This document shows positions 8,999 through 41,806 of a stretch of 56,358 nt of DNA, in pieces. The stretch comes from Ignavibacteriota bacterium. GTDB taxonomy: Bacteria; Bacteroidota; Ignavibacteria; Kapaibacteriales; UBA961. The notes under the pieces are model-generated. The model saw only the letters and a list, made by a program, of their open reading frames with translations. It was not told where the DNA came from and searched no databases. The stretch covers positions 1-56,358 of the forward strand of contig JACPWH010000187.1 of the NCBI GenBank assembly GCA_016197185.1. Direction: 5' to 3'. Position 1 is the first letter of the stretch; the number at the start of each line of letters is the position of its first letter. A program made the translations under genes and the position numbers.

Positions 8999-9464
8999 GA
9001 GATTACCCCGAAAAAATAGTAAGAAATGATTATGTTGCTTGTTAAACAGAATTTTACACTTCAAATTACAGCAATAATAGGAAATATAATAATAAAAATT
9101 TTCAATTTGCGACGATTGTTCGTTTCAACGCGTACCAAACACTCACTATTTGCTATTTTTGTGTGTACGGCTGTGTATTTATTGGTAATTTTGACTGTTG
9201 ATATCGAATGTGATATTCAAAATTGCAATAATGATTGATTTGGTAAAAAATCATGGTTGTTTTCTCCAATTCATTCGAATCAATAACAGACCATTAAACT
9301 GAACACTCTTAACAACAATTCTGAATGTTTTAAAATGAAACTCCCCTGCAGTTAGCAATAACACGAAAGTATTCAATACGTTTCATAATTTTAAAATTTT
9401 TTATCGGACACAACTTACATTTCAGCCATATTTTATCGTCGTTTTTCTATCTGAAAGCCACATT

Positions 9465-25164: not shown

Positions 25165-25968
25165 TTATCTGACTATCATAATTTTGTAATTTGCATTCAT
25201 TCCGGTAGGTTTTTGTACCATAAGATAGTATGCTCCAGATGCAAGATTTTGTACGTCAATGTTATCATTGTTTTCGTTTGAAATACCTGACCAAATCGTT
25301 GAGCCGGTGGGGGAATATATAGTAATTTTGCTGTTTGCTATTGTCCTTACATTAATTAAATCGCTTTCCCGCTCATAATAAACATTATCAATATCAGCAA
25401 TTTCATTATTGATATTATTAACAACAGATTCAATATTATACCATACTGATATATAGAATTTTTTAAGTGCTGTATTTATACTTGGTCCGCTTCTTTTTTC
25501 ATCAAATGGAAATGATGCAATAACTCCGCCCAGGTCATCAGCAAAACGTGCTGAATCAATATATTTTGCTAGTGGATATTCCCATGAAATATAGAATGGG
25601 TCATATCCTCTTAATTCCTGCGGTATTACATCAAATTGATATTTAATCATAAATTTCTTTGTGGGTGGTATTCTTCTATAATCTTTATAGCTAATTCCTG
25701 TTCCAAAGCCATCTGATATTACCAGACCTGCATGAAACCCACTAGGTGGGTGTTGAGGTAGATCAACTTCTCCAAGATTGTAATCTATCGAATCTGTCGC
25801 TCTATCGTCAATCCCAACAATCAACGGTCTTACTACAACGGGTTTTCCTACTGTATCCGAAGCATTGAATTTAAGTTCAACCGTAAATTGACCTTTTAAT
25901 AGTAGTGGCGTACATATTAAAGCAGTAAATACTATGAAATAGGCTCTAATAGATTTATTGATTTTCAT
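25165..25968 (-). CDS. Small secreted T9SS cargo (267 aa) consisting of one ELPPxPP-type module plus a CTD
   Basis: Signal peptide ...CTPLLLKGQ. Module motif LGEVDLPQHPPSGFHAGL ... FYISWEYP. The CTD-like end reads KITIYSPTGSTIW...LASGAYYLMVQKPTGMNANYKIMIVR. The stop lies 21 nt before the oxidoreductase ATG. Confidence 0.8.
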   Translation of the reverse strand: MKINKSIRAYFIVFTALICTPLLLKGQFTVELKFNASDTVGKPVVVRPLIVGIDDRATDSIDYNLGEVDLPQHPPSGFHAGLVISDGFGTGISYKDYRRIPPTKKFMIKYQFDVIPQELRGYDPFYISWEYPLAKYIDSARFADDLGGVIASFPFDEKRSGPSINTALKKFYISVWYNIESVVNNINNEIADIDNVYYERESDLINVRTIANSKITIYSPTGSTIWSGISNENNDNIDVQNLASGAYYLMVQKPTGMNANYKIMIVR

Positions 25969-25987: not shown

Positions 25988-26026
25988 AATAAAAAATGGG
26001 CAACGGAGACTATCTCTGTTGCCCAT
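25988..26026 (-). terminator. Strong intrinsic terminator after the 1029-aa gene
   Basis: ATGGGCAACGGAGA (25996-26009) pairs with TCTCTGTTGCCCAT (26013-26026), a 14-bp stem with one G-U pair and a 3-nt loop. On the transcribed (minus) strand a TTTTT-A-TT tail follows. It sits 35 nt after the stop at 26061. Confidence 0.7.
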
Positions 26027-26060
26027 CTTCATGTTATTGTTTCAACAAGACAATCTGATC

Positions 26061-29000
26061 TTAGCGAATAACCGTAAGAACTGTATTTGTAGAAACATCT
26101 CCTGTTGCCATTCTGATTGTATATTGACCGCTTGGCAATGCAACTGTTTCAAATGGAACTGAATAAGTATCAGCATTTTTGAACTCTTGTACTAAAGTAG
26201 CTACTTCGATACCGAGCATATTATATACTTTTAGAGTTACAAATCCATTTTGAGGTACAACATATTCAACTGTTGTCAAACCATTTGCAGGGTTAGGTAC
26301 AGTTGAAATCAATGAGCCTGTAAGCTGCACATCTGATTTTAATAATTTAACAGCTTCAATATTTTGGTCTTTAATAATTACCGTTGAGTTTGAACTATTA
26401 ATTGTACCTAATGATTTGCCTGTTATAATATCAACTACAGTATATGTAGCTTTTGGATCTTGTACTGTAATTGATACAGGATATTCAACACCCTGGAATC
26501 TTACAACAGGAATTGTTGAATTTTCAGCATTTGCATTGTTTGTAAAACGAGCATCGAATAGACCCATCGGAGGCAATGGAGGTAATTCAAAAGCACGTAC
26601 ATCTTTTACATTAGATAAATACAAGTCGTTTGAATGATCTGCTTTATCACTGATTGTAACTTTAGTGCTTGAATTAATTATTGATTGTTTTTCATAATTA
26701 ATATCATCAGCATATTTAACCCCTGATGGAGCAGTCAATTTCAAATAACCGTCATCTGACACAAATATCCAATACCCAAGACCGGGAAGAATTTCTGTAG
26801 TCTCATAGTATCCTCTATCTGTTTTATAACCATAAACACTTTTGATAGGCTTATTAGGAATCGAAGTATTATATGGATCAAAATCAATTGCTGATACTGG
26901 AAGAGGAACACTCAATCCACCAATTGTATTCCATCCCGGAGAAAGACGTACAGGGTTCGTTGTTGCGTTAATTCTATTAATTCTAACACCTGCAACTCTT
27001 GAATCCAAATATTGACCATATTTAATGAAGTATCCTACACCTGCATGAAGTATTTCTTCATTTTGATATGATTGTTGGTAGAATTTATATGGCTGACCAC
27101 CAACTGAATTTGGGTATATAGACGAAGCTCTCAAATCGGACGGAAGAACGGGCAAAGACAATAAGTTCCATCCTTTATTGATAACAGGGAATGATACTAT
27201 CTTAGGCAATGTATATTCTACAACAAATGATGTAATTCTAGCATCTCTGATTGTAAATGACATTCCAGTAGCTGTTGGAGTAGAATTTCTCATATCAACG
27301 CTAAATATTGAGCCATTGAGCGTATCTCTTAAGAATAATTGTGATCCGTCGGGAAAATCTTGTGGATCCCAATTTATAATAATCGGATAATTCTGAGCAC
27401 CATCGGCATTAAATCTTGCTAAAAATAGAATTGATGAGTCAACACCATCATCACGTATATCTCGTGAATGTGAGCGTTGTGCAACACTTCCTTCATTTTC
27501 AATAGGAATTTCGCTAAAACCGTAAGGGGCTATTTCGTTTCCACCAGCATCCTGAACATTTGGATTGAACCATCGTGCATAGAAACCTGTTGGAGGATTT
27601 CTATAAAAGTCTTCACCAAATAAACTGTCAATTCCATCAGTAGCACGGTACCCAGTTCCAAATACTAAATCATTTGATTCTCCGCCTGTACCTTTAGAAT
27701 TAGTAACAGTTAGACGAATACCCCAATCTCTTCCTTGTCTTGGAGCTTTGTATGGGTCAAGAGGATTACGGAAATATATAAATACAACCTTTAATTGTAC
27801 AGGAGAAATAACTGCTGAACCTGAAGAGAACGTTATATAGCCTGTGTAAACACCAGCATATTCTTCACCTGCTTTTCTTAAACTGTCATCTCTGCAGACA
27901 ACACGCATAGTCATAATCTGTTGAGCAGATGCGACCTGATTTCTAGCATCCTTCAAGTTTGGAGGCACAGGACCGTTTATACCATTATCCAAAAACGCTG
28001 CCTTCCCATCTCTGGTTAGTGATGGAAAAGGATTATACCCGTTAGGCAAAGATCTAAACCAAAGCCATGATGCACTTGATTGAGCTGTCATATATGTTAA
28101 TCTACTTCTTGGGGTAGAATTAACAACTAGAATATCCCTTGTTCCATATTTACCAGTGTTTTGACTCGAATCAACTACAATTGGTCTTACAATTTCCCAT
28201 AATGATCCGTCAGGTATATTTTCATTCTGACGGACTTCATTGTTGGTACCACCAATCACATCCCTAAAACCGACAGCAGGGTTTTCGCCTACGTTCACCC
28301 AAATTAAACCTGATTTACTAGGATAATCGGGATAATCATCTGATGTCAAGTTAATTCCGGCTAAACCAATCGTTGGGTTTTTATCTAAGCGATAAAATTT
28401 ATTTCCGTAAGGGTTATTAGCATCACCTTGTGATACCAATGGAAACGGATCATCAATACCTACACGAAATTCACCATAACGAAGGGAATCATTAGTAATA
28501 TACATTGGGGATTTTTCAGCACCACTGTATTTTGCAGGATCGCTTTGCAATTTTTGTTTCGACAATGTTACTTTAAATTTCACATAAAGTAATACTTGAT
28601 ACTGACCATTTTCGTCCGTTAAAGGAAGTCTGCGGTTTGAACGACCTGTGATAAACATTCTTCTACCATATTTCGTTTCAGCATCTGCAGCACCGGTTAG
28701 GTACACTCTATAACGGGTAGGATCTGCCTTGTCATCAATCTCCAATTCGAAATCTTTAGCAAGTGCTGTTATGTCACCACCTATAGGGTCAGTTAATTGG
28801 ACACCATTTGATTGCATAACACGACCATCATACAACAAACCGAATGAGAAACTATATATAGGATAACCACCGAATCTCGCTTCGGTAATCATGGTAGAAT
28901 CCCACCATAAGTTTTGAAGAAAGACAGGAACTAAAATCTCCCGTTCTTTAACATCTGAAAAACCTAACCAAATTCTTCCATCAGAATAAATTTGATTATT

Positions 29001-29150
29001 ATATCCATTGTTTTGTCCCAAAAGCGACAATCTTGGAATATCTGCTTTTTGCAAAGCATGTAGCTGACTGTTCGTAATGAACAGTGAGCAAGCCGACAAC
29101 AACATTACTATAAGTAATTTGTTCTGCAATTGTAAAAATTGCTTCTTCAT
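26061..29150 (-). CDS. Secreted T9SS cargo (1029 aa) with two ELPPxPP-type modules; otherwise no recognisable domain
   Basis: I chose the ATG at 29148-29150. It is preceded by AAGGAGAGAG and gives the signal peptide MKKQFLQLQNKLLIVMLLSACSLFITNSQLHA. The upstream ATG at 29219 would overlap the previous gene by 41 nt. The CTD reads VPNPANGLTTVEYVVPQNGFVTLKVYNMLGIEVATL...GQYTIRMATGDVSTNTVLTVIR. Confidence 0.85.
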   Translation of the reverse strand: MKKQFLQLQNKLLIVMLLSACSLFITNSQLHALQKADIPRLSLLGQNNGYNNQIYSDGRIWLGFSDVKEREILVPVFLQNLWWDSTMITEARFGGYPIYSFSFGLLYDGRVMQSNGVQLTDPIGGDITALAKDFELEIDDKADPTRYRVYLTGAADAETKYGRRMFITGRSNRRLPLTDENGQYQVLLYVKFKVTLSKQKLQSDPAKYSGAEKSPMYITNDSLRYGEFRVGIDDPFPLVSQGDANNPYGNKFYRLDKNPTIGLAGINLTSDDYPDYPSKSGLIWVNVGENPAVGFRDVIGGTNNEVRQNENIPDGSLWEIVRPIVVDSSQNTGKYGTRDILVVNSTPRSRLTYMTAQSSASWLWFRSLPNGYNPFPSLTRDGKAAFLDNGINGPVPPNLKDARNQVASAQQIMTMRVVCRDDSLRKAGEEYAGVYTGYITFSSGSAVISPVQLKVVFIYFRNPLDPYKAPRQGRDWGIRLTVTNSKGTGGESNDLVFGTGYRATDGIDSLFGEDFYRNPPTGFYARWFNPNVQDAGGNEIAPYGFSEIPIENEGSVAQRSHSRDIRDDGVDSSILFLARFNADGAQNYPIIINWDPQDFPDGSQLFLRDTLNGSIFSVDMRNSTPTATGMSFTIRDARITSFVVEYTLPKIVSFPVINKGWNLLSLPVLPSDLRASSIYPNSVGGQPYKFYQQSYQNEEILHAGVGYFIKYGQYLDSRVAGVRINRINATTNPVRLSPGWNTIGGLSVPLPVSAIDFDPYNTSIPNKPIKSVYGYKTDRGYYETTEILPGLGYWIFVSDDGYLKLTAPSGVKYADDINYEKQSIINSSTKVTISDKADHSNDLYLSNVKDVRAFELPPLPPMGLFDARFTNNANAENSTIPVVRFQGVEYPVSITVQDPKATYTVVDIITGKSLGTINSSNSTVIIKDQNIEAVKLLKSDVQLTGSLISTVPNPANGLTTVEYVVPQNGFVTLKVYNMLGIEVATLVQEFKNADTYSVPFETVALPSGQYTIRMATGDVSTNTVLTVIR

Positions 29151-29178
29151 AACTCTCTCCTTGATATTGTAAGAAGAT

Positions 29179-30405
29179 TTATTTAATAAATTTAATGTAT
29201 TTTCTTTTATTTTCTGCATTTGTAATTATTTCAACGATATAAGCACCATTTTGTATTAAGTTCTGTGGCAAACTAACATTGAATGATGGATACTCTATTT
29301 TAAATCTAACCAATTCAATACCTAAAATATTGAATATTCCTACTTCATTAATAATTTCTGATGAAAACAATTTTATGTTGTTATCACTTTCTATAATCTG
29401 CAAATCAAATTTTACTATATCTTGATCTACTTCTACTGACATTATTGAGTCAGATTTAATTTTTCTAATGTTTGCTATATCACCGCTCAATTTTTTTATG
29501 CAAGTACAAACATTTGTTTGTACTATTCTTGCTGATATAGGTGATGTGAAATTTGAATCTTTTAAAGATTTTAATTTCAAACGTAACGCTGGCAAAGATG
29601 TTTGGAAGTTTTGACTAAAACTGATTTTAACTTGAGTACTATCTTCGTTCTCAATAATTGTATCAATAATTATACTGTTTTGCAGGGTAACTATCGATAC
29701 AATATTCAACAATTTTGAATCACTTGCTCTAAATACAATATTTGCATTTTTTAGTTGCGCATTTTGTTGGAATTGAAGTAGGAGATCAATATCATCAATT
29801 GAATCATTTTTACCTATTTCTAATTCTTTTTGTATAAATAAAGTCTTGAATTCTCTACCGTTTAAATCAGCTACTTCACCTTTAATATATTTCTCTTCAT
29901 CAAATTTAACGTTCCGAACTGTTGTAATGTTTTGATATTCAGCTTCGAAATCACTAATTCTTATCGATGTAAATCCCTCGCATGAATCTTTGTATCTCCC
30001 TTTGAAAGCAATCAAAGGTTCACTACCCTTTACAAAGCTTGAGCCATTTTGAATGAATGCTACCGCATGATAAACACCCGGTTCGAAAAGCCCAAAATAG
30101 CTAAAACCTCCTGCAGCTTCAATTTTACTAGTTAGTGTATTCGGTTTAATTGGCTGTTCTATTATTATTTTATCTTTATCAAACTCAAGATAAAAGTCGT
30201 AACCAATAAGACTGTCTTTTGCATATATTTCATTTGTCTGAACGTATATTTCAATCCTTTTTTCCGAATTACAGACATCTATTATTGATGTAGATGGTAT
30301 AATTTCTACTTTTAAGGTATCCTGAGCTTTCCCTTTCTGCATACCGCTGAGGATTAAAATCACCAGCGGTAGCAGATATGAGAATATTGTTTTGCTATGA
30401 CTCAT
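29179..30405 (-). CDS. Secreted protein (408 aa) with a cohesin-like N-terminal domain and a divergent T9SS-CTD-like end
   Basis: Signal peptide ...LSGMQKGKAQ. The N-terminal domain reads LKVEIIPSTSIIDVCNSEKRIEIYVQTNEIYAKDSLIGYDFYLEFDKDKIII. The C-terminus reads INEVGIFNILGIELVRFKIE...GAYIVEIITNAENKRKYIKFIK. The gene starts 7 nt after the upstream stop. Confidence 0.78.
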   Translation of the reverse strand: MSHSKTIFSYLLPLVILILSGMQKGKAQDTLKVEIIPSTSIIDVCNSEKRIEIYVQTNEIYAKDSLIGYDFYLEFDKDKIIIEQPIKPNTLTSKIEAAGGFSYFGLFEPGVYHAVAFIQNGSSFVKGSEPLIAFKGRYKDSCEGFTSIRISDFEAEYQNITTVRNVKFDEEKYIKGEVADLNGREFKTLFIQKELEIGKNDSIDDIDLLLQFQQNAQLKNANIVFRASDSKLLNIVSIVTLQNSIIIDTIIENEDSTQVKISFSQNFQTSLPALRLKLKSLKDSNFTSPISARIVQTNVCTCIKKLSGDIANIRKIKSDSIMSVEVDQDIVKFDLQIIESDNNIKLFSSEIINEVGIFNILGIELVRFKIEYPSFNVSLPQNLIQNGAYIVEIITNAENKRKYIKFIK

Positions 30406-30412
30406 TGTAAAA

Positions 30413-33217
30413 TTATTTTACAATTGATATCTTTTGCGTATAGATTTGATTATTACCTTTCAAACGAACAAAATAAACACCGTTGTTAAGTGATTGCCCA
30501 TTGTTATCATAACCGTTCCACTCAAAAGACATCGAACCTGATTTTGAATTACCATTAAAGATTGCTTTAACATCCTTACCTACTACATCAACTATATCAA
30601 TAGTATAGAATCCATCAGTAGGAATGTTGAATTCCAATTTTGTTGACGATGAGAATGGATTCGGGAATGTAGATATAACACCGGTAACTGCTAAATCTTT
30701 TTCTTCTAATGTTAGAGATTGTGCGTTTTGTCTTCTCTCATTGAATTCAACAGTTGATGTATTAAGCACACCATTTTGAGTTTCTACTGTCACATAAGCA
30801 ATTGGATCAATTTCATTAAATTCACCTGAAGCAGCAATAACTATTTTACTGTCATTGTGATCTGCTACAATTGTATTTGATTGATTTTCAATTGTCTCGA
30901 CATCCAGTACTTTTCCGTCAACTGTAAATTCGGCACTTATTCCATTAGCAGTACCGTTAAGATAGACCGGTATTTTATATATATTATTTGCTAAAGTAGT
31001 GTAAGTATTTAGCTTGATGTTATCCGCAGGTTTAGTTCCTATAGTAGCTTTTCCAAAAATTCCTAATGTATCCCATATCCATGGCAAAGAAGGAATTCTT
31101 GCTGAAATATACATAAGAATATCACTTGCATCCTTAGCATTTGCTTCATAATAAATCAAACGTAATGGACCTGCATCCGGTGGAAGACCTGCTAAACTTT
31201 CTACAGAATCTCTTCTTTTTCTTACACCGAAAGTATCAACATCAATTGCTCTTCTCCATAGAATTGTATCTCTCAGATTATCAAGAGTTCTTGATGAATA
31301 ATAGTAACGACCGTTATGATTAACATCAGCATGATAATTATTACCTAAGCGTAATGTATCTTTTCTTAAGCTGTCAGGTAATGATTTATCTTGAATCAAC
31401 CATCTCATGATTAATCTTGAATCATTCACTGTTACAAATCTGTTTTGAATCATCGCAGCGTGTTTACGTACACGAATTTGACTTAAATCTGCATCTCCGT
31501 CACCCCAACCAGGACTGGCTGAACGTGGAATAGCTCTGAAGAATATTCTTCTGCCTTCGCCATTATTAGTTCCGCTTGATGGTCTCCAGTTTTGAGTTAG
31601 CTGCTCACTTGTGAAAGCTGTTTGAATATTATCATAGGTAAGTCCGTTGATAAAATCGCTTTTGATAAGGAACAACCCGCTTGCAGAGCCTTTTAAACCA
31701 ACTGAAGCATTTTTGTATGAAACAGTTGTCAGAGGAGTAAATGTATTTCCACCAACATCACCGTAAGCAAATTCAACTCCGCCTGCAAAGTTATTAGGGA
31801 ATCTATCATCAACACCTTCATAAAGGATTGCTTGGAAATTACCTACACTTGAAGGCAGTGTTTCATCCATTATATTCAAGTTTTTCCACTGAACAATCAA
31901 TCTTCTGTTTGGATATGAACCAAGAACCAAGTAAGATATTTCCGATCCTAAGTACTGACCGTTTGAAGATGGAGTGGCTTGCTCACCCGGCACTCTTAAA
32001 TAGTGATCACCCCAGAAAGGAGCAATTACATTGTTTGGATACGAAGAGCTGTAAAGGAACAATCCATTGGCTTGATCATTTGCAATTGATGAAAAGACAT
32101 CAGGATTTTGGAATGTAGCAAATCCATTAACATTAATCCAAATACTTGGCTGTTTAATTCCTTGGAAATTAAAGTCAAAATTTAATGAACTTAAATCAAC
32201 TCTGTAAAACCCGTCATCTCTATCAGTTCTAAAACCATTAACCTGAGGTATAAATCTTGATTCAAACCAAATAGGATTAATTGCTAACGATTTTTGATAA
32301 GCTTCAAAACGAATAATACTGGAAACAGTACCTGATGGAACCCATCCCGAAGTTAATGCAGTTGAAGTAGTAGCAAGGTTTGGATTGATATATGAGAGAC
32401 CATTTAAATATTCTCCATTCGCACCTTTTAGACCAACTGATGCACCATTGTAATATGTTGGATCAACAGGACCATTACCACCAAAAGGACCATAGGAGAA
32501 ATCAATGTCATTTTGAGTGTTTAATTGTGGCTGACCGGCATTTGTCGGTATTTGTCTTTCCCACAGAATAACTTGAAAATTAGCTAATGCTGCATTATCG
32601 GTTGCTGCATTTCCTTTAATATTTACACTTAGATTTTTCCACTGTATAACGATTTTTCTTTTAGGAGCAGCACCAAAAACTTGCCATGATATATCGGATT
32701 CTTTTCCTACTACATCAGTTTGGTAAAGATGATTTCCCCAATAAGGGGCTATTATGTTTGAAGGCAGAACATTTGCAAATAAATCAGAACTAGAATTACC
32801 AACATATCCCGGAGCTACTGGACTAGTATTTACTATTACAAAACCATTTACCGATATCCATAAGTATCCTGTTCCAGCAGGATAAGTAGTTCCATTATAC
32901 TGAATGGTAAATGGAAGTTGAGCTTGCAAATATCCTGCATCTGCAGCTGGAGATCCTTTAGCAGGCGGAATCATTTTAACTCTGTCCGGACCATTTTCAG
33001 TTAATTCATTGTAAACAACATTGCTTACTAACATTGGACCATTGTATCTGCTTGCGAAAGACAAAGGGCTTATACTGTAATCTTTGTACAGTTTCCCTTC
33101 GTTTATAACCGGCGCATCGAATTCATCATAAATTCTTTGTGCCTTAACTTGGGTTGATAGCAGTAGCGTAAAAGATAATGCTGCTATCAACGCTAAAAAT
33201 ATACGTCTACGATTCAT
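30413..33217 (-). CDS. Secreted T9SS cargo (934 aa): duplicated NIDO-like module, a possible dockerin-like segment, a cohesin-like domain and a CTD
   Basis: The track start at 33256 is GTG. I used the ATG at 33215-33217 (GGAG lies 7 nt upstream), which gives the signal peptide MNRRRIFLALIAALSFTLLLSTQVKAQ. The CTD reads STFPNPFSSSTKLEFNIPTDGFYTIDIVDVVGKDV...GVYFVRLKGNNQIYTQKISIVK. Confidence 0.85.
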   Translation of the reverse strand: MNRRRIFLALIAALSFTLLLSTQVKAQRIYDEFDAPVINEGKLYKDYSISPLSFASRYNGPMLVSNVVYNELTENGPDRVKMIPPAKGSPAADAGYLQAQLPFTIQYNGTTYPAGTGYLWISVNGFVIVNTSPVAPGYVGNSSSDLFANVLPSNIIAPYWGNHLYQTDVVGKESDISWQVFGAAPKRKIVIQWKNLSVNIKGNAATDNAALANFQVILWERQIPTNAGQPQLNTQNDIDFSYGPFGGNGPVDPTYYNGASVGLKGANGEYLNGLSYINPNLATTSTALTSGWVPSGTVSSIIRFEAYQKSLAINPIWFESRFIPQVNGFRTDRDDGFYRVDLSSLNFDFNFQGIKQPSIWINVNGFATFQNPDVFSSIANDQANGLFLYSSSYPNNVIAPFWGDHYLRVPGEQATPSSNGQYLGSEISYLVLGSYPNRRLIVQWKNLNIMDETLPSSVGNFQAILYEGVDDRFPNNFAGGVEFAYGDVGGNTFTPLTTVSYKNASVGLKGSASGLFLIKSDFINGLTYDNIQTAFTSEQLTQNWRPSSGTNNGEGRRIFFRAIPRSASPGWGDGDADLSQIRVRKHAAMIQNRFVTVNDSRLIMRWLIQDKSLPDSLRKDTLRLGNNYHADVNHNGRYYYSSRTLDNLRDTILWRRAIDVDTFGVRKRRDSVESLAGLPPDAGPLRLIYYEANAKDASDILMYISARIPSLPWIWDTLGIFGKATIGTKPADNIKLNTYTTLANNIYKIPVYLNGTANGISAEFTVDGKVLDVETIENQSNTIVADHNDSKIVIAASGEFNEIDPIAYVTVETQNGVLNTSTVEFNERRQNAQSLTLEEKDLAVTGVISTFPNPFSSSTKLEFNIPTDGFYTIDIVDVVGKDVKAIFNGNSKSGSMSFEWNGYDNNGQSLNNGVYFVRLKGNNQIYTQKISIVK
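31529..32935 (-). repeat. Internal tandem duplication (coding) of a ~215-aa NIDO-like module (copy 1 at 32297-32935, copy 2 at 31529-32209)
   Basis: Copy 1: WISVNGFVIV...NIIAPYWGNHLY...KIVIQWKNLS...ANFQVILWE...IDFSYGPFGG...ASVGLKGANG...NGLSY. Copy 2: WINVNGFATF...NVIAPFWGDHYL...RLIVQWKNLN...GNFQAILYE...VEFAYGDVGG...ASVGLKGSAS...NGLTY. Confidence 0.7.
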
Positions 33218-33275
33218 AAAGACTCCAAATATTTTTTTTCTAAATAATTTTTTCACGTTGTTAATTGTGATGGCG

Positions 33276-33306
33276 TTTGGCTCTCTTTATTGCAAAGAGA
33301 GCCAAA
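33276..33306 (-). other. Perfect 13-bp intercistronic stem-loop between the 2490-aa and 934-aa genes (no T-tail)
   Basis: TTTGGCTCTCTTT (33276-33288) and AAAGAGAGCCAAA (33294-33306) flank a 5-nt loop. It sits 14 nt after the stop of the giant gene. No U-run follows on either strand. Confidence 0.5.
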
Positions 33307-33319
33307 TCCATTCAATAAT

Positions 33320-36300
33320 TTATCTAACAAGCATCATTCTTTGTGCTGTGCTAAATGCTCCTGATGTCATTTTTACAAAATAGACACCTGAAACCATATT
33401 AACTCCTGCATCATTCTTTGCGTCCCATTTAATTTCAGTTTTACCTGCACTTAAGAAACCATCAACAAGAGTTTTTACTTTATTACCCATAGCGTCATAC
33501 ACTTCAACCTTTACATTTGAAGCTGTTGGTATGCTCATTATCATGTTTGATTGACCTGAAGACGGATTAGGATTGCTTTCACCTAATTCAAAAGAAGTAG
33601 GCATACCTGTTTCAGGCTCATTAACTGCACTGATAAAGTCATATATAATGATAAAGCCATCAATATCATCTTTATTAACTCTAATAGTAGAGATACTTCC
33701 ACTTTGGTCATAATCAACAATAGTTGATGCATGAGCACCTTGTCCGGTTCTCATATTGTAACCAAAGAAATTACCGTTTGAAATATTATCTCTTATCCAC
33801 CATGTAGCACCGCTTGGGTTCTTAGTGGTATTAGTTTTATCAGGAACATCATCTCTATTCCAAGAAATTGTTACAGGGAAGGCATGTGAAAGACTACCTG
33901 TAATGTCACCTGCTTGGAATCTTGCTTTGTATGTTGAAGAATTAGCATCTTTAGGTACTGAAGTCGGGAATATATTCCTTATAATACCATTTCTCAATGC
34001 AATTGTCCAACGTGCATCAAATACATCTCTTGGTGGAATTGGAGGAAGCTCGAATTCACAATAATTTGAATCTAATCTTCCTAACTCGTCTGCTTTTTCA
34101 CCAGTAGTTGCATTTTTTGCCGAGCCGAAGTAAAGTACTTGGAATGCACCCAAATCTTTGTTGTTAGAAACAGTAACCGGAACCAAGAAGTCTGTTGGAT
34201 CAGATATATTAAGTTTATATTCTAAAAACTTAGTTACTTCACCATCTGTAATTTGCACTCTTATTGTAATCTTTCCATCAACCACTGCGTTTGCAGGGAA
34301 TGTAAAAGGACCATTTGATTTGATAATTACTTTTTGAGTAGTGTCAACTTTAGTACCTCTGATAGCAGCAGGTTCAATAGTCAGATTAGTTCCTGTTGGG
34401 GAAACAATTGATATTCTGATTTCTTCTATAATCGGATCAAATGTAGCTGAAGTATCCCACCATGGTTTTTCTCTTAACAAATCTAAATCTTGTGCAAAGA
34501 GAGTGTCCAAATATGTATCACCATCACCAATGCAACGTACTATTGGTGCTGTCAACAATTTAGGATCATGATTCGAAGAATCAACTTCCAATATAAATGT
34601 TTTAACATCATTTAAACCACCTGCATCAGTAATCACTACAGTCACTGTATCAGGGTTGCCCAATGTTATAGAACGTGGAGCATCCTTAATACCAGGTGTA
34701 CCTGATAAAAGACCGCTAACCGGATTGATTTTTAACCATTTTGGAGTTTTCTTGATACCTCTAACATCCCAGAAACCTGCTTCTCTGAAACAAGGATCTT
34801 TTGCAATCATTGTATCTGCGTCTGTTGGGTACAACAATTTGAATTTCTGAGCTTGACCAAAGTTAGGGTCGAAATATTCGATTTTTCTAGGTCTGTTAAG
34901 AAGATCCGTGTTATAGTCTAAGCCTTCTTTAGCTTTATCCAAACTTGTGTTTAAGATAGTAGGTGATACGTTTACAAAAACACGTTTGGTTAAATAGCTA
35001 AGTCCACCGTGACCGTCATTTACAACCAAAGTGATCAATGTGTCCGTATTAAGTCCACCATTTGCTTGATCTGCAGGGCTGAGAGGTTTTAATAAATTCA
35101 AAGCCTCAGCTCGAGGAATACGGATATTTGCAACACCACGTTCAGTAAAGTCAGAACCGAATTTATCAGAGAATGACAATACATGATCAACCAAGTAAAC
35201 TGCAGTATCCAATACTATAGGAATTAGAGGACCATTGTCGGTCATTCTTTGTCTAATATCAATTACCGTATCTCTTTTCACAACCTTAGATGTTGAATAG
35301 TTATTGATAACAGTTACATCAGTAACAATACTATCCACTTGGAAAATATTTACAGTAGTCGAATCCTTAAATCCATTCACCAATATCTTAACATTAGCAG
35401 CGTATTGCGTGTCTATTGTATTTTCAATATTGATTGTTGCCTTGTCGCCAAGCAATACATCTTCTCTAAACATATATTGCTCAACCATCCAATTAGGTCT
35501 AACTTGATATATCTCATCTATTGAAGTATCACCCGGAGTCGTTCTTATTGATTTTGAAAGGAACGCATACGAAGTTTTACCATATTTGAAATCCCAGTTT
35601 TCTCTATTTGCAGCTACTGAATCTTCTTTTTCGTCATCTGTATTGAAGTCTGCATAGAAACGCAGTTTATCAGTTACATTCGCAACTAAAAGTTGTTGTG
35701 TACCCAAACCGCAAGCTGCACTTGGTCTTGTTGTGTTAGCAAAAACAGGCAAGCTATCCATTACAAAAATCATAAAACGATATACTGAAGAATCAGATGA
35801 ACCGAAATTCAATGTATCTTGGTTCAAATAACGCGCATTTCCAATTGGAGGACTTACAATAGGATCAGAATCATATTTCTGAGCGTGGAAATAAGAAGGA
35901 TACAAATAAATAAATTTGGATAAAGTATCAACTATAAATGCACTGTCTGTTGGATTCCCTGATGAATCAGCTCTTGAATGTAAATAAATGTTTTTGAGTG
36001 CATCTACAATTCTTGCACTTGAAGCATAGTTTTTGACAACAACTTCCATCCATTCACCACCTGGAACTACATACGGATTCGATGGTTTTCCTTTAAGCTC
36101 TACCCAACCTGTAGCACCATAATACGATGGATTTGGTGTGCGAGGCGTAATTGTTTTTGGGTTTTTTGTCGGCCAAATAGTATCAGCTGTAATCCATCTG
36201 CGTAATGCAGTCAATTTATTTGGGAATACATCTCTAACTGTATCACCGTAAGGTCCTACATAAAGCGGGAACCATGAAATTTCAAGCTGATTATATCTTT

Positions 36301-39300
36301 TGAGTGTTGTATCATTCGGTTTAATAGCACCATTAGCATCAATATCCAATGCCCAACGTGGGTCATACATTAAATTTGAATCAATAGCTGATATTACAAA
36401 AATCGAATCACGTCCTTTTTTGTTAGGATCCGGAACTCTGCTATAGCTTTCATCTTCTTCTACAAAGATTTTGTTTTTATAACTGCTAAAATATATAGCA
36501 CTAACTTTTGGATTTTCTGTTGTTATCTTATTGCCAGTAAATACAGGTGGAGGAGTAGAAGTTGTAATTCTAAATCCTAAACCTTTATCGATAGCAGTAT
36601 CTACGCCATCTCTCCATAAAACTGTTCTTGAGATAACTCTTACAAAATCACCCGGACGAACAGGTAATGTATTCCAGCGTTCACCAGCAAAATATGTTAC
36701 AATTGTATCTGAACCGCTTGCTAACGATGCAGGCATACTTGGTCTATTTGAATAAATAACTCTTTGACCATTGTTATAAAGAATACCTCTTTTGTTTAAG
36801 GCTGAAGACATAAATACATCGTATTTTCTTCCACCTAATGCTGAAATGTCCTCATTATAAGCTGTATCAGCTAATCTTGGCAATAATGTTTCCGTGCCGC
36901 CAAAATTATAAAGACCCTCATAAGTTCTACGAACACGAGCACTTGTGCCTGTTCTTTCTGATGAATCAGGAACAAAATCTACTCTTCCGCGAAGAATTTC
37001 CTTTGGATAAACACCATCATTATTTAATGTCTGAACATCTGTAAATTGATTCATGTTTATACGGATGTAATCTCCCGTTGAATCATTTATTACAAAAAAT
37101 ACAGAACCATTTAATGTTGTAGGGTCATCATTATTCGAATTAATGTCTTCACCTTGGTATCTTGCTCTTGCTTCCAAGAATAGAGGATATCCAATCGGAT
37201 GACTTTGTTCATTTGTTCTATAGTCAGGAGCAAATTCAGTTTGCAATCTTCTTAATTGTCTCCACAAAACATTTTCTCTATTTGTAGCATAGTTAAGAGA
37301 GTCAGTTGCAAAAGGATCTTTTGTCAATCTACGTACATATTTGTTAAATGATGCTTTTGTAGAATTTGAATAACGCTGTAGTTTCGGTGGAATACCGACA
37401 GAGAAATCTTCAATTGGGGACATTCTTCTTGCTGAATAATCAGCAGTTTTCATATCCGTACCTTTATCAAAGAAATCATAAATACGACCAGCCATCAAAA
37501 GTGTATCCGGAATTTTTCCAATTTGTATCGGAGTGTAGGTATATCCGGGGAAGCCATTTTGTTCAAATGGTCCTTGTTGTGTATCGTCAGTTCTTCCTGT
37601 TCTTAGGAATCTCATGTGAGTATTGCCGTTACCCTGTATAAAGAAGGTTTCTTGAATACCGCCATTTACAAATCCGGGTTGTGAAGTTTTAATTACTGTA
37701 TTGACATTTGCCTGAGTAGCACCCCAATAGTTTCCTCTCAAAGTATCAACACCACCAAAACCAATACCTGCACCCCCTGAAAGCACACTTTTTGAATTTG
37801 GTGCATCAGGCAAACGGATAATAAATCTTGCATCATTATCATATATTGAGTTTGCAGCTATATTAAATGATGTCCATGGAATAGGACCGATAATATCACC
37901 ATAGAAAGTTGCGCCGGCTAAATCACTTGAAGCTTGATTATCAGGGTTGATAAATGGTCCACTTATCACATCTTGAGTTCTACCTACAGGAGATGTAGCT
38001 CTGTTAGAAGTAACCAAACATCTTGTTAAAACAAGTTTCAAATCATAGTTATCTGAATAAACCGCTGATCCGGTATATGCTGTATTGTTTTGAATACGAA
38101 CACGGTTTAAAAATACTGAGTCTGTTCTGTATCTTCGATTGAGTGTAACACTATCCAATATATAGATCGCACCACCCATACCGATACCATTTTCACGTAA
38201 TCCGTTTCCTAAAACATCACGGATAAATCCAGGGTGGAATCTTTTTATATCAATAATATTTGCACCCATTTGTGTTGCTCCGCTACCTAATAATCTTGAA
38301 TCAGGGTTTGGTTCTGCAATATTATTGTAAAATCTTGTTAAGCTTCTTACATCAGCAGCAACCGCAGCAATTTTTCTATTGTCATAAAGGCTGTCATTAG
38401 AAATATAAGCTGTTGCTGTTCCATTAGGCTGAATTGTTAACTGGTCAGCATCAGTAATGAAGAATCTTTTTGAAGAAGTGCGTGGATGTATCATCGCAAT
38501 CGCACCACCATTACTATTGAAAGCACTGTTATTATTAAATTCAACACCTTTTACAACATTCAAATCACCATTCATTGAATAAACCGCACCACCACCTCTT
38601 ACTTGTTTCAACATTTCAAGACCGGTTGAAGAAGCAAAGCGACCTGTTGTATTATTCAAGAATTGAGTTCTTACCAATCTAATGTAGCGTTGTTCGATTG
38701 GAACCGGAGGTTCAATACTTGGTAAATGTATTGCAATAGCACCTCCAGAAAGACCTGATGTGTTATTCGCAAAACGAATACTGAATCCTGTCCCATACGA
38801 TTGCGCCAAAGGAAGATCATTTATAAATCCACCCGCACCATAAGAAGTCATATTTCTTTTTGTAAATACTGCTCCGCCATGTGCGATTGCCGTATTGTTT
38901 TCGAAGTTGATTCTTCTTCCATAATCTCTTAATCTTGGATTTGGAATATCAGAACCACCAATAATCGGAGAAGGACGAGGGTCTGTATTTCCATCAACAT
39001 ATACTGCACCACCCGACCCTGCTCTATTATTTACGAATTCCGTTCCAAGGCTTGGATGACCTCTAAGTTGCAAACGACCTAATGTGTTTTCGTGGAATAT
39101 CGCACCACCTAAAGCATATTGATCACTATTGCTGTTTGCTTGGTACGGAGTTTCAGCATAATTATTCGTAAACGAACCGTTAATAATCATGGATGTATAT
39201 TTACCAATATACAACGCTCCACCTTTCGCTCCTCTTGAATTTGGAGAGAATTGGCGGTTTGTAACATGATTGTTAATGAATGTAACAAAGTCTTTTGAAC

Positions 39301-40792
39301 CGAAACTTACAAATCCAAAAGGACCTGCAGCAGTTCTGATACTGTCATTTACACCCAATCCAATTTCAATTTTTCTATTTTCATCAAGTTCTCTACCTGA
39401 TATAACCAATGCTCCGCCGAATGCTTCATTTTTCCATGACTGAGACTGCAAAGCTGCAGGTCTGTCTGTGTCTGAAACCACTCTGTTACCATTAATTCTA
39501 ACAGTATCAACATCAGACAAAAGAACTCTGTTGTTATCAAAGGTTAATTGACGCACTCTTCCTAAATAAATAGCATGGCGTGCGTCATCCACTTTTTGAC
39601 GAGCTGCATCTGAGTTTGAAATTGCAGGCTCGGGAACATTAATATTATCCAATTCACTTAACTGTACAACTCTCTGTGCTATCGTACTTCCATCGCTTTC
39701 GGTCATGGAAGGATTTTTATCGACAAATGAATAATTTGTTATTCCCATACCTGCGGTATCAGGATACACACCTAAACCAGCAGGTGCTTGAAGCATTTGC
39801 AAAGCACCGCCTCTAAATCTTGCAAGGTTATTTACAAAATTACAGCCTATCAACCATGTTCTTTCTGAAAATGATGTAAGTGCTCCGCCTGCGCCGTTCG
39901 TAAGTTTCTGCATGTCATCGTTTAACACTTTATATGCAGATTTAAGTGAAGCCTCAACAATTGCCGTGTCATACATCGGTCTTGTTGATGCTACGGTTGT
40001 GTCCTTGCGAAAATCCTTAAAATCAACATCTCTGAAAAATGCTGCACGAGCACCAGGAAGCACAACTATATGCCCCCATTCACGAGAATAATCATTGATA
40101 GGTTGACCTCTAAATACTATTCTTCTTGTTGCAGCATTTACAGGGATATTCGGAGTAACTCCAAAAAGACGTCTCCATGGTTGGAAACGAATAATATCAT
40201 CTGTTGACCATAATCTTGAAGCAGTGTACATAATTGCTCTCATTGGAGAGATAACCACTTTGTTACTTCCTTGTCCAGGAAGCACAGAACCGCTTGTAAG
40301 ATTTTCGATACGTTTTGTTACCGTATCCAAAAGAACATTGAATATGTAATTATATTTTCCATAACCGCTCGGGTTAGTAAAATTACCCGGATATGCCAAT
40401 AATCCGTCAATTGTTTTTTCGTTGTAGTTTGTTTCCTGTACTACAGACGAAGTAAGAAAATAACGCGGGTCACTGTATTCCAGTAAACCAATCGAACTTG
40501 GAGTTGTGCCGTTATAGGCAGCACTCATTCTACTATCAGCTATAATCCGCCCACCAACCGAGTCAATCAATCTACCGTTATCAAAAAAGATAACCTCTGT
40601 ACCCGGCTCAATAATCAATGTACCGGCGACAGTGTATGTACCATTAATTTGGTACGTACTGTCTTGTAGAAATATTCGCACCTCATTTGGAGCAATACGT
40701 CCCGCTACCTGCACACGAGGCCCAGCGTAACCCACTGTCACTGCCAGGGCTAACGCAATCAATAGAGTGCTTAAACGAAACCAACGTTGCAT
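33320..40792 (-). CDS. Giant secreted T9SS cargo (2490 aa): Pmp-type FxxN/GGA[ILV] beta-helix repeat array, a ~1050-aa region without recognisable domains, a cadherin-like/He_PIG-type Ig domain, an ELPPxPP-type module and a type-A CTD
   Basis: The ATG at 40790-40792 has GGAGG 5 nt upstream. Signal peptide MQRWFRLSTLLIALALAVTVGYAG. Ig-like stretch PKWLKINPVSGLLSGTPGIKDAP (about 34690-34745). CEFELPPIPPRDVFDARW lies at 34007-34060. The CTD reads NPNPSSGQSNMIMSIPTASNVKVEVYDAMGNKV...GVYFVKMTSGAFSTAQRMMLVR. Confidence 0.9.
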   Translation of the reverse strand: MQRWFRLSTLLIALALAVTVGYAGPRVQVAGRIAPNEVRIFLQDSTYQINGTYTVAGTLIIEPGTEVIFFDNGRLIDSVGGRIIADSRMSAAYNGTTPSSIGLLEYSDPRYFLTSSVVQETNYNEKTIDGLLAYPGNFTNPSGYGKYNYIFNVLLDTVTKRIENLTSGSVLPGQGSNKVVISPMRAIMYTASRLWSTDDIIRFQPWRRLFGVTPNIPVNAATRRIVFRGQPINDYSREWGHIVVLPGARAAFFRDVDFKDFRKDTTVASTRPMYDTAIVEASLKSAYKVLNDDMQKLTNGAGGALTSFSERTWLIGCNFVNNLARFRGGALQMLQAPAGLGVYPDTAGMGITNYSFVDKNPSMTESDGSTIAQRVVQLSELDNINVPEPAISNSDAARQKVDDARHAIYLGRVRQLTFDNNRVLLSDVDTVRINGNRVVSDTDRPAALQSQSWKNEAFGGALVISGRELDENRKIEIGLGVNDSIRTAAGPFGFVSFGSKDFVTFINNHVTNRQFSPNSRGAKGGALYIGKYTSMIINGSFTNNYAETPYQANSNSDQYALGGAIFHENTLGRLQLRGHPSLGTEFVNNRAGSGGAVYVDGNTDPRPSPIIGGSDIPNPRLRDYGRRINFENNTAIAHGGAVFTKRNMTSYGAGGFINDLPLAQSYGTGFSIRFANNTSGLSGGAIAIHLPSIEPPVPIEQRYIRLVRTQFLNNTTGRFASSTGLEMLKQVRGGGAVYSMNGDLNVVKGVEFNNNSAFNSNGGAIAMIHPRTSSKRFFITDADQLTIQPNGTATAYISNDSLYDNRKIAAVAADVRSLTRFYNNIAEPNPDSRLLGSGATQMGANIIDIKRFHPGFIRDVLGNGLRENGIGMGGAIYILDSVTLNRRYRTDSVFLNRVRIQNNTAYTGSAVYSDNYDLKLVLTRCLVTSNRATSPVGRTQDVISGPFINPDNQASSDLAGATFYGDIIGPIPWTSFNIAANSIYDNDARFIIRLPDAPNSKSVLSGGAGIGFGGVDTLRGNYWGATQANVNTVIKTSQPGFVNGGIQETFFIQGNGNTHMRFLRTGRTDDTQQGPFEQNGFPGYTYTPIQIGKIPDTLLMAGRIYDFFDKGTDMKTADYSARRMSPIEDFSVGIPPKLQRYSNSTKASFNKYVRRLTKDPFATDSLNYATNRENVLWRQLRRLQTEFAPDYRTNEQSHPIGYPLFLEARARYQGEDINSNNDDPTTLNGSVFFVINDSTGDYIRINMNQFTDVQTLNNDGVYPKEILRGRVDFVPDSSERTGTSARVRRTYEGLYNFGGTETLLPRLADTAYNEDISALGGRKYDVFMSSALNKRGILYNNGQRVIYSNRPSMPASLASGSDTIVTYFAGERWNTLPVRPGDFVRVISRTVLWRDGVDTAIDKGLGFRITTSTPPPVFTGNKITTENPKVSAIYFSSYKNKIFVEEDESYSRVPDPNKKGRDSIFVISAIDSNLMYDPRWALDIDANGAIKPNDTTLKRYNQLEISWFPLYVGPYGDTVRDVFPNKLTALRRWITADTIWPTKNPKTITPRTPNPSYYGATGWVELKGKPSNPYVVPGGEWMEVVVKNYASSARIVDALKNIYLHSRADSSGNPTDSAFIVDTLSKFIYLYPSYFHAQKYDSDPIVSPPIGNARYLNQDTLNFGSSDSSVYRFMIFVMDSLPVFANTTRPSAACGLGTQQLLVANVTDKLRFYADFNTDDEKEDSVAANRENWDFKYGKTSYAFLSKSIRTTPGDTSIDEIYQVRPNWMVEQYMFREDVLLGDKATINIENTIDTQYAANVKILVNGFKDSTTVNIFQVDSIVTDVTVINNYSTSKVVKRDTVIDIRQRMTDNGPLIPIVLDTAVYLVDHVLSFSDKFGSDFTERGVANIRIPRAEALNLLKPLSPADQANGGLNTDTLITLVVNDGHGGLSYLTKRVFVNVSPTILNTSLDKAKEGLDYNTDLLNRPRKIEYFDPNFGQAQKFKLLYPTDADTMIAKDPCFREAGFWDVRGIKKTPKWLKINPVSGLLSGTPGIKDAPRSITLGNPDTVTVVITDAGGLNDVKTFILEVDSSNHDPKLLTAPIVRCIGDGDTYLDTLFAQDLDLLREKPWWDTSATFDPIIEEIRISIVSPTGTNLTIEPAAIRGTKVDTTQKVIIKSNGPFTFPANAVVDGKITIRVQITDGEVTKFLEYKLNISDPTDFLVPVTVSNNKDLGAFQVLYFGSAKNATTGEKADELGRLDSNYCEFELPPIPPRDVFDARWTIALRNGIIRNIFPTSVPKDANSSTYKARFQAGDITGSLSHAFPVTISWNRDDVPDKTNTTKNPSGATWWIRDNISNGNFFGYNMRTGQGAHASTIVDYDQSGSISTIRVNKDDIDGFIIIYDFISAVNEPETGMPTSFELGESNPNPSSGQSNMIMSIPTASNVKVEVYDAMGNKVKTLVDGFLSAGKTEIKWDAKNDAGVNMVSGVYFVKMTSGAFSTAQRMMLVR
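38048..39889 (-). repeat. Array of ~10 FxxN ... GGA[ILV] motif pairs (polymorphic-membrane-protein-type repeats, predicted right-handed beta-helix), coding
   Basis: Pairs in order: NFVNN/GGALQM, TFINN/GGALYI, SFTNN/GGAIFH, EFVNN/GGAVYV, NFENN/GGAVFT, RFANN/GGAIAI, QFLNN/GGAVYS, EFNNN/GGAIAM, RFYNN/GGAIYI, RIQNN/GSAVYS (aa ~302-915). Confidence 0.7.
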
Positions 40793-40884
40793 AATACCTC
40801 CGTTTGGATGAATAAAATTGTAATAATTTAACTTTATGTTTTTTGTTTAATTTTGTCTTTGTCAAAAAGGATTAACAGGGGCAG

Positions 40885-41604
40885 TCACTCAATTATCATG
40901 CCAAGTCGAGTGAGTCCGCTTTTTGCCTCAGCTACAAACTCAGCAGATTCACCTTGAATTATTTCTCTATATAACTTTTCTGATTTTTCTTTGTTGTTTG
41001 CCTTTTCGTAGTTCATTGCTGCATACAACTTATATTTCCCTATAACTGACGGCTGATTGCTCATTGATGCAGCCTTTTCATATTGCTCTGCTGCTCCGCT
41101 ATACTCATTTTTTGATTCTTTACAGACTGCTAATCCGGCGTTTGACGCTACAGTCACTTCTTTGGACTCACTTCCTAAACCCTTTGAAAAATATTCTTCT
41201 GCCTCAGCATATTTTTTCTTTGCCAATAAAGCATTTCCTGCATATACTGCTGCAACTTCGCCGTTTCGGGTACCTCCATATTCGTCAACAATTGTCTTCA
41301 ATCCTACAATAGGCGTTCCCCTCACTAACTTCTGCGGATCACCATTGAACGCTTTGTCATTGTCCCCACTTTCTATAAACACCATCACTCTCGATAATGC
41401 CACTGATGCTTCTTGTTCCTTGGTTTCTTTCGACTTATTATAAAATATTATAGCTGTAATTGCCACTACAACCACGCCTAAACCAATTAATATAAGTTTG
41501 ATATTTCTTTGTAATGACGATGTGGTATTGCTTCCGTCATAATTAAGTTCTTCCGCAACCCCAACTTCATTGTTGTTCTCAATCATTTCTTCTTGATTAG
41601 CCAT
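40885..41604 (-). CDS. YfgM-like membrane-anchored TPR-like protein
   Basis: 239 aa. It has a short acidic N-terminus, a single TM (IKLILIGLGVVVVAITAIIFY) and then a helical TPR-like domain (...AAVYAGNALLAKKKYAEAEEYFSKGL...GAAEQYEKAA...YKLYAAMNYEKANNKEKSEKLYREII). This matches the topology of YfgM/TPR_21-type proteins. Confidence 0.65.
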   Translation of the reverse strand: MANQEEMIENNNEVGVAEELNYDGSNTTSSLQRNIKLILIGLGVVVVAITAIIFYNKSKETKEQEASVALSRVMVFIESGDNDKAFNGDPQKLVRGTPIVGLKTIVDEYGGTRNGEVAAVYAGNALLAKKKYAEAEEYFSKGLGSESKEVTVASNAGLAVCKESKNEYSGAAEQYEKAASMSNQPSVIGKYKLYAAMNYEKANNKEKSEKLYREIIQGESAEFVAEAKSGLTRLGMIIE

Positions 41605-41732
41605 CTGGTTTGTTTATATTTATTTAATGATACAGCTTTAGTAATTATCTTTCACAATACTATAACTCAATTTATCTCTTGAAGTCAAAAATAATGTTAC
41701 ACTTGATAGAATTGTGCAAAAACAATAGGATG

Positions 41733-41806
41733 CGCGCCCGAAGGGAGTCGAACCCCCAACCTTTGGAACCGGAATCCAACGCTCTATCCGGTTGAGCTAC
41801 GGGCGC
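41733..41806 (-). tRNA. tRNA-Arg (anticodon CCG)
   Basis: The minus strand reads GCGCCCGTAGCTCAACCGGATAGAGCGTTGGATTCCGGTTCCAAAGGTTGGGGGTTCGACTCCCTTCGGGCGCG. It has a 7-bp acceptor stem (GCGCCCG/CGGGCGC), a D arm GCTC..GAGC, an anticodon stem TTGGA/TCCAA with loop TTCCGGT, and the T-loop TTCGACT. No CCA is encoded. ORF 41672..41866 overlapping it is spurious. Confidence 0.93.

Follow-up and report, generated by a model that had tools for sequence, protein, structure and literature searches.

The window analyzed here is a 56,358 nt stretch of an Ignavibacteriota bacterium (contig JACPWH010000187.1, assembly GCA_016197185.1). Its minus strand carries five consecutive genes for predicted cargo proteins of the type IX secretion system (T9SS), which we name after the lengths of their products in amino acids (aa): g2490, g934, g408, g1029 and g267. 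We propose, with a probability of about 0.5, that this locus is a vertically inherited set typical of Kapabacteria-type Bacteroidota and that the five proteins would form one non-enzymatic structure on the cell surface. We favour a single structure because the gene order is invariant, the close spacing is conserved, a module with the motif ELPPxPP (module M) occurs only within the cluster in the 56-kb window and cohesin-like domains recur among its members.

The cluster runs from gTPR (positions 40885–41604, 239 aa), an open reading frame (ORF) for a YfgM-like tetratricopeptide repeat (TPR) protein, through the giant cargo gene g2490 (33320–40792), g934 (30413–33217), g408 (29179–30405) and g1029 (26061–29150) to g267 (25165–25968), a fifth T9SS cargo gene located just beyond an intrinsic terminator. 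All six genes are on the minus strand and are separated, in this order, by 92, 102, 7, 28 and 92 nt. The lengths of g934 and g1029 are counted from ATG starts; for g934 a GTG at 33256, 39 nt further upstream, would yield 947 aa, and the longest ORF of g1029 comprises 1052 aa. A first-pass annotation, made from the letters alone, had listed four minus-strand ORFs of 2490, 934, 408 and 1029 aa with gaps of 102, 7 and 28 nt, and our coordinates agree. It had also placed Shine–Dalgarno-like sites in front of the first and the last of these genes, and both were recovered, GGAGG at 40797–40801 (minus strand) for g2490 and AAGGAGAGAG before g1029. In every related locus listed, g2490 is preceded by GGAGGT (GGAGGA in a few loci), a few nt and then the ATG. 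However, the terminator-bounded unit of gTPR and four cargo genes that had been drawn around these ORFs was too narrow: g267, which shares module M, lies beyond the terminator, a hairpin follows g2490 and several lineages have hairpins after gTPR.

Gene order in related genomes

When one genome per species was scanned, 229 species had relatives, and we retrieved 79 loci. Nearly all carriers are metagenome-assembled genomes (MAGs) labelled Kapaibacterium, Kapabacteria, Ignavibacteria, Chlorobiota or Bacteroidota, and Kapaibacterium is listed in the NCBI taxonomy under Bacteroidota; Eximiradiia; Kapaibacteriaceae. Going by the labels of the nearest loci, which are heterogeneous, the window most probably belongs to this lineage. 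The order class IV aminotransferase–E1 dehydrogenase–gTPR–g2490–g934–g408–g1029–g267 was kept in every locus that was long enough. Using family hidden Markov models (HMMs), we found all five cargo genes in order in 50 of the 53 eligible loci, no order violation at all, and no loss of any of the first four cargo genes in loci of sufficient length. Synteny among relatives, which the first-pass annotation had made a touchstone for its proposed unit, is conserved. On the 3′ side of g267 the neighbours vary and include a pyridine-nucleotide oxidoreductase, lipoyl synthase, ribosomal protein S21, SmpB and others.

The spacing is conserved as well: in the related loci ∼7 nt separate g934 from g408 and ∼33 nt separate g408 from g1029, with no hairpin in either gap. 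At a divergence that leaves the E1 dehydrogenase ∼70% identical, all five cargo genes are still retained as orthologues; their identity and that of gTPR is then ∼41% for g2490, 38% for gTPR, 36% for g1029, 35% for g934, 28% for g267 and 24% for g408, which makes g2490 the best conserved of the five cargo proteins.

The full locus was also seen in public MAGs labelled Hyphomicrobiales, Chloroflexota, Bradyrhizobiaceae, Desulfobulbaceae, Didemnitutus and Patescibacteria. These labels are implausible, and they are probably wrong or the contigs misbinned.

Export signals, module M and domains

The T9SS type A C-terminal sorting domain (CTD) was scored with the model TIGR04183 (cut-off 23 bits). 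The scores were 28.8 bits for g2490, 35.4 for g934, 23.7 for g1029 and 26.6 for g267. The g408 protein of the window reached 19.7 bits and is below the cut-off; among its orthologues 24 of 39 match Por_Secre_tail (PF18962), and the family profile matches the CTDs of RemA/RemZ with an E-value of 5e-6. Judged by these models, a type A CTD is present in all five cargo proteins, in g408 by way of its family. In the translations, we read an N-terminal Sec signal peptide on each cargo protein, with a basic start, a hydrophobic core and a cleavage site of the A-x-A/AQ type. A signal peptide together with a T9SS sorting domain had been claimed for the first four cargo proteins, and this held, for g408 through its family and not by its own score. 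We considered a PorU or PorZ identity for g1029 and g934 and dismissed it: peptidase C25 and propeller domains were not found in them, and only their CTD regions are similar.

Running a module M HMM over the 56-kb window returned exactly four copies, all on the minus strand. One is in g2490 (33635–34201, ∼aa 2198–2386, ELPPIPP...FDARW, E-value 2e-42), two are in g1029 (M1 at ∼27204–27734, E-value 1.9e-47; M2 at ∼26331–26675, E-value 9.7e-25) and one is in g267 (∼25435–25881), where the motif reads DLPQHPP. The same HMM found no copy in g934, in g408 or in two large proteins of 1465 and 1306 aa that are encoded elsewhere in the window. Profile alignments with hhalign supported the homology, since the g267 family aligned with the middle of the g1029 family at 97.7% probability (E-value 2.5e-12) and with the last 290 residues of the g2490 family, which comprise module and CTD, at 98.4% (E-value 5e-15). 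A database search with the module M alignment, limited by its word prefilter, returned only 9 close g267 orthologues. The sharing of the ELPPxPP module that had been noted earlier therefore stands for g2490 and g1029, which has it twice, and extends to g267, but it does not include g934 and g408.

In g267 module M makes up the whole mature part, between the signal peptide and the type A CTD. The g1029 protein is composed of a signal peptide, a cohesin-like domain, an Ig-like domain, module M1, a beta-domain with the motif GWNLLSLP, module M2 and a type A CTD. In g2490, the signal peptide is followed by a long beta-helix of PMP repeats, a conserved region of no recognized fold, one or more He_PIG Ig-like domains, module M and the type A CTD. 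The beta-helix matches Chlam_PMP (PF02415) with 38.6 bits against a cut-off of 20.6; all of the 19 orthologues match as well (best E-value 2e-16), and He_PIG is matched in 17 of them. Five of the 19 g2490 orthologues scanned contain a BNR/YCF48-like propeller insert (PSII_BNR, Sortilin-Vps10; E-values down to 7e-37); these propeller-bearing proteins are 2700–2880 aa long, and the g2490 of the window is without the propeller. The stretch DIDANGAIKPNDTTLKRY at ∼36290–36345 (aa 1483–1500 of g2490) resembles a single dockerin/EF-hand loop of canonical form together with a helix. We dismissed this F-hand as a lineage-specific insertion, present in near relatives only and absent from most orthologues.

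In the g934 protein, a member of a family with hundreds of relatives, the signal peptide is followed by two NIDO-like domains; a conserved helical segment (WGDGDAD...DVNHNGR) then leads to a beta-sandwich of cohesin-like type and to the type A CTD. Its NIDO score (PF06119) is 18.8 bits against a cut-off of 25 in the window, and 11 of 32 family members match (best E-value 4.4e-6); the invariant motif APFWGDH resembles the NIDO motif of animal proteins. Long orthologues of ∼900–930 aa, among them that of the window, have two NIDO-like domains, and the commoner short ones of ∼615–700 aa have one and are without the first. This difference in domain count indicates duplication or loss within the lineage. 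The g408 protein has an N-terminal domain of cohesin-like type behind its signal peptide and an invariant CxC in its middle domain, and it ends in a type A CTD. A word search found 6 close relatives of it and a profile search found ∼200 cluster representatives, all of 370–420 aa. For gTPR, TPR_21 (PF09976) scored 32.1 bits against a cut-off of 25.5, in line with its first designation as a YfgM-like gene; an N-terminus of ∼35 aa (cytoplasmic) and one transmembrane helix, IKLILIGLGVVVVAITAIIFY at ∼aa 35–55, precede the TPR_21 domain.

A cohesin-like signal recurs in g934, g408 and g1029, and it is weak in all three. The AlphaFold2 (AF2) model of g934 had a predicted local distance difference test score (pLDDT) of 84.7 and a predicted template modelling score (pTM) of 0.68. 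Searched with Foldseek against the PDB, it matched 2w1n, a cohesin plus FN3 structure of Clostridium perfringens GH84C (E-value 6.9e-7), and the cohesin-like 2jh2_B (template modelling (TM) score 0.50). The matches were restricted to the last two beta-sandwiches, CTD regions of PorU/PorZ were matched as well, and the whole-chain search returned nothing for the NIDO-like part. Foldseek matches of g934 to integrins were dismissed at TM scores of ∼0.1. The AF2 model of g408, built from 7 sequences, had a pLDDT of 41.8 and was unusable. Pfam Cohesin (PF00963) matched 4 of 39 members of the g408 family (best E-value 1.3e-4) and 2 of 40 members of the g1029 family (E-value 3.5e-3), and no match to it was found in the proteins of the window itself. 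In hhalign, the families of g408 and g934 aligned with each other in the CTDs alone. Hence the cohesin-like domains that the first-pass annotation had described as shared do recur in g934, g408 and g1029, but with weak scores.

Between the NIDO-like and the cohesin-like parts of g934 we observed a candidate dockerin-like segment (31073–31510, minus strand; ∼aa 570–715) with two insertions. Its invariant residues are WGxGD, D599, VTxND, DVxHxGR, DA and LPW, and we take it to resemble a type I dockerin whose calcium-binding loops each hold an insertion. With the insertions cut out by hand, four of four g934 family members matched Dockerin_1 (PF00404), and no other family meaningfully, at 20.8–28.4 bits against a cut-off of 22.9 and over profile positions 2–56 of 57; because the splice points were hand-chosen, these E-values are optimistic and the result is suggestive only.

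Intergenic hairpins and surrounding genes

As proxies for transcripts, we computed gaps and hairpins over 58–76 loci. The gap between g2490 and g934 (typically ∼80 nt) contains a strong hairpin in 67 of 69 related loci, with a median of –22 kcal/mol and a T-run in only 2 of 69. A value of –15 kcal/mol or lower was reached by 96% of the real and 3% of the shuffled gaps. In the window this element is the stem-loop GGCTCTCTTT-GCAAT-AAAGAGAGCC at 33279–33303 (minus strand), a perfect 10-bp stem without T-run. The stem sequences differ between lineages, and therefore the structure is what is conserved. This hairpin may be an attenuator or an element of mRNA processing or stability that would set the level of g2490 relative to that of the genes downstream.

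The second conserved hairpin lies in the gap between g1029 and g267 (typically ∼85 nt). It was found in 58 of 58 related loci with a median of –23 kcal/mol, a T-run followed in 40 of 58, and –15 kcal/mol or lower was reached by 100% of the real and 9% of the shuffled gaps. The intrinsic terminator of the window (25991–26026, minus strand) has a 14-bp stem, ATGGGCAAC...GTTGCCCAT (hairpin 25996–26026), followed by TTTTT, just as the first-pass annotation had described it after the fourth gene. Its stem GGGCARC/GYTGCCC (25998–26024), which occurs once in the window, is conserved across lineages whose E1 dehydrogenases are only ∼70% identical, and such conservation of sequence is unusual for an intrinsic terminator.

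A conserved hairpin was not found in the gap between gTPR and g2490 of the related loci. In several lineages, gTPR is directly followed by a terminator-like hairpin, and because of this the membership of gTPR in the unit is uncertain. Taking gaps and hairpins together, the cargo genes may fall into three expression segments, namely g2490, g934–g408–g1029 and g267. A scan for sigma-70 promoters yielded nothing above the shuffled expectation, and the only match in a scan with Rfam was a tRNA. This is the tRNA-Arg(CCG) at 41732–41806, located between the E1 dehydrogenase gene and gTPR and found in the same place in 12 of the 18 related loci tested.

The surroundings include an Omp85/POTRA protein (47416–49770), nearest to assembly factors of the TamL/BamA type, and, together with GatB, MnmE and MnmG, it marks the window as ordinary chromosomal core DNA. 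Of the T9SS machinery, the only gene seen within the 56-kb window is a PorE-like one at 14486–16651. Its product of 721 aa has PD40 repeats and an OmpA domain, scores 186 bits with NF052230 (cut-off 600) and also resembles the CHU_0125 family, both matches being below the curated cut-offs. The two large proteins mentioned above, at 4667–9064 (1465 aa) and 18916–22836 (1306 aa), have choice-of-anchor D/ASH-type Ig domains. They are distant paralogues (22% identity over ∼800 aa), contain no module M and bear no relation to the cluster, except for a similarity in the CTD region of the 1465-aa protein, in which a type A CTD was matched just under the cut-off; in the 1306-aa protein it was not matched.

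Competing readings and known systems

If the five proteins belong to one surface structure, they would cross the inner membrane by Sec, perhaps with help of the TPR protein as a chaperone, and the outer membrane via the T9SS, after which the CTDs would be cleaved and the proteins anchored on the cell surface. There they would form a heteromeric, non-enzymatic fibre or coat that might serve adhesion or the organization of the surface. The giant beta-helix of g2490 would be the principal component, the rest of the proteins would act as adaptors, and contacts would be made through the cohesin-like domains and the four copies of module M. At the RNA level, the structured element after g2490 would lower or process read-through, g934, g408 and g1029 would be translated in close coupling, and g267, located behind the terminator, would be expressed separately or via read-through. 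The term apparatus, which the first-pass annotation had used for the products of the cluster, may be apt on this reading of the sequence.

Several of our observations weigh against a single structure, and many of them speak for the main rival reading, which is that the five are independent surface proteins or adhesins, without complex or shared function, and stay together only because this neighbourhood rarely rearranges. Upstream, the genes for the class IV aminotransferase, the E1 dehydrogenase and tRNA-Arg keep their place just as well; because housekeeping genes share the synteny, it proves no functional unit by itself, and part of the conserved order may be simple inheritance. The two conserved hairpins part g2490 from g934 and g1029 from g267, which speaks for two or three expression units at the least and not for one operon. 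The five proteins evolve at very unequal rates, from 41% down to 24% identity in the comparison given above. Moreover, g267 can be lost, being the only cargo gene lacking in the remaining 3 of the 53 loci and truly absent in two of them. It is common for a genome with a T9SS to encode many unrelated CTD proteins, and the window has its own further large proteins at 4667–9064, with a CTD just below the cut-off, and 18916–22836, with no CTD match. The N-domains of g408 and g1029 aligned in hhalign at only 63% over 29 columns; the Cohesin matches are below the significance usual for Pfam and concern a minority of the members; the native g934 segments gave no match to Dockerin_1, and the dockerin similarity arises solely after splicing by hand. 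However, independent proteins would not readily account for the lack of any order violation and of any loss among the first four genes in loci long enough, for the conserved spacings of 7 and 33 nt, for the confinement of module M to the cluster, for cohesin-like modules in three members or for the flank 3′ of g267, which does rearrange. On balance we regard independent proteins as the best of the alternatives, although a rather unlikely one.

A more specific form of the single-structure reading would make the cluster a Gram-negative, T9SS-based counterpart of cohesin–dockerin systems. Here the cohesin-like domains would build a scaffold by binding the insertion-bearing, dockerin-derived module of g934, module M or both, with the PMP beta-helix as the fibre, and the result would be a conserved surface structure that marks out the Kapabacteria-type lineage as a whole. 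We hold this version to be doubtful.

The cohesin-like modules and the possible dockerin-like one could also belong to a cellulosome-like system for the degradation of polymers at the surface, in which g2490 or another member would be an unrecognized lyase, hydrolase or protease and the others scaffolds or binding modules. Polysaccharide lyases and hydrolases often have a right-handed beta-helix fold, many glycoside hydrolases are exported by the T9SS, and the propeller insert in 5 of 19 g2490 orthologues would fit such a system. However, among ∼170 orthologues scanned at E-values up to 1, no match to families of carbohydrate-active enzymes (CAZymes), peptidases or lyases was found, and profile searches of the PDB with all five families yielded CTD matches only. 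No HExxH occurs in the cluster proteins, and the single GxSxG of g2490 lies inside a PMP ‘GGA’ repeat and is not a real site. SusC/SusD or sugar-use genes were not found adjacent to the cluster. It had been noted earlier that the proteins are without catalytic motif; this is borne out for HExxH and for enzyme families, but GxSxG does occur once each in g2490, g934 and g1029. Homology of the members to unrelated enzymes, a point on which the first-pass annotation had made its proposal vulnerable, was not seen in any family. We consider an enzymatic system improbable, and less likely than independent surface proteins.

A gliding-motility system like sprCDBF of Flavobacterium, with a giant mobile adhesin and accessory proteins, likewise less likely than independent proteins, is very improbable. 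In its favour are a giant T9SS protein followed by smaller co-directional genes and the PorE-like gene at 14486–16651, which scores below its family cut-off. Against it, no PorP/SprF-like beta-barrel and no gld or spr family was detected in the cluster, no similarity to SprB-type repeats was seen, and the CTDs are of type A, where SprB has a type B CTD and a dedicated PorP-like partner.

As a rule, T9SS cargo is recorded one protein at a time, and to our knowledge few multi-protein cargo sets have been recognized beyond surface layers (S-layers) and the SprB system. The present locus is a lineage-wide set of five cargo proteins with a fixed order, conserved spacing and RNA hairpins and a private shared module. 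If the proteins assemble, they would be the main surface structure of a widespread uncultured lineage that occurs in wastewater, lakes, soils and hot springs, and they would add a new module for interaction and perhaps a principle of assembly on the T9SS surface that is based on cohesins. The two conserved hairpins offer a test case for differential expression inside a cargo cluster. Our literature searches on Kapabacteria with T9SS found no description of the cluster, and no characterized homologue of it was found, the profile searches of the PDB giving nothing beyond the CTD.

Among known systems, sprCDBF of Flavobacterium johnsoniae shares with the cluster a giant T9SS surface protein beside smaller co-directional genes. 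The cluster differs in lacking an SprF/PorP-like partner, in having CTDs of type A and not of type B, and in that its accessory proteins are all T9SS cargo; no sequence similarity was detected. The analogy to sprCDBF drawn by the first-pass annotation was therefore not sustained, as none of the six proteins matched a PorP/SprF-like family and the type A model is the one that recognizes the CTD of g2490. The beta-helical Pmp adhesins of Chlamydia share the GGA[ILV]/FxxN PMP repeats with g2490, where they score above the Pfam cut-off; all of the 19 orthologues have them too. However, they are type V autotransporters, whereas g2490 ends in a T9SS CTD and has ∼1400 further residues of no recognized fold.

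Cohesin–dockerin modules outside cellulosomes were reportedly treated by Peer et al. in 2009. The penultimate domain of g934 is similar in fold to the cohesins of such non-cellulosomal systems (GH84C of C. perfringens; 2w1n, 2jh2), the g408 and g1029 families show weak matches to Pfam Cohesin and g934 has a collinear dockerin-like pattern. The differences are the weakness of the matches, the interrupted dockerin-like segment, which is unrecognized in its native form, the setting as T9SS cargo of a Gram-negative bacterium and the absence of enzymes. By its domains the cluster may resemble such assemblies, without being a demonstrated member.

T9SS type A surface coats are known from the adjacent S-layer genes tfsA and tfsB of Tannerella forsythia and from the CTD-protein surface layer of Porphyromonas gingivalis. 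Like TfsA/TfsB, the cluster has large adjacent genes, type A CTDs, presumed anchoring at the outer membrane and no enzymatic domains. The cluster differs in its five proteins, the PMP beta-helix of a 2490-aa member, the NIDO-like and cohesin-like domains and the private module M. By analogy, and not as a demonstrated member of this group, the cluster would work most like the T9SS surface coats that are made from adjacent genes for CTD proteins.

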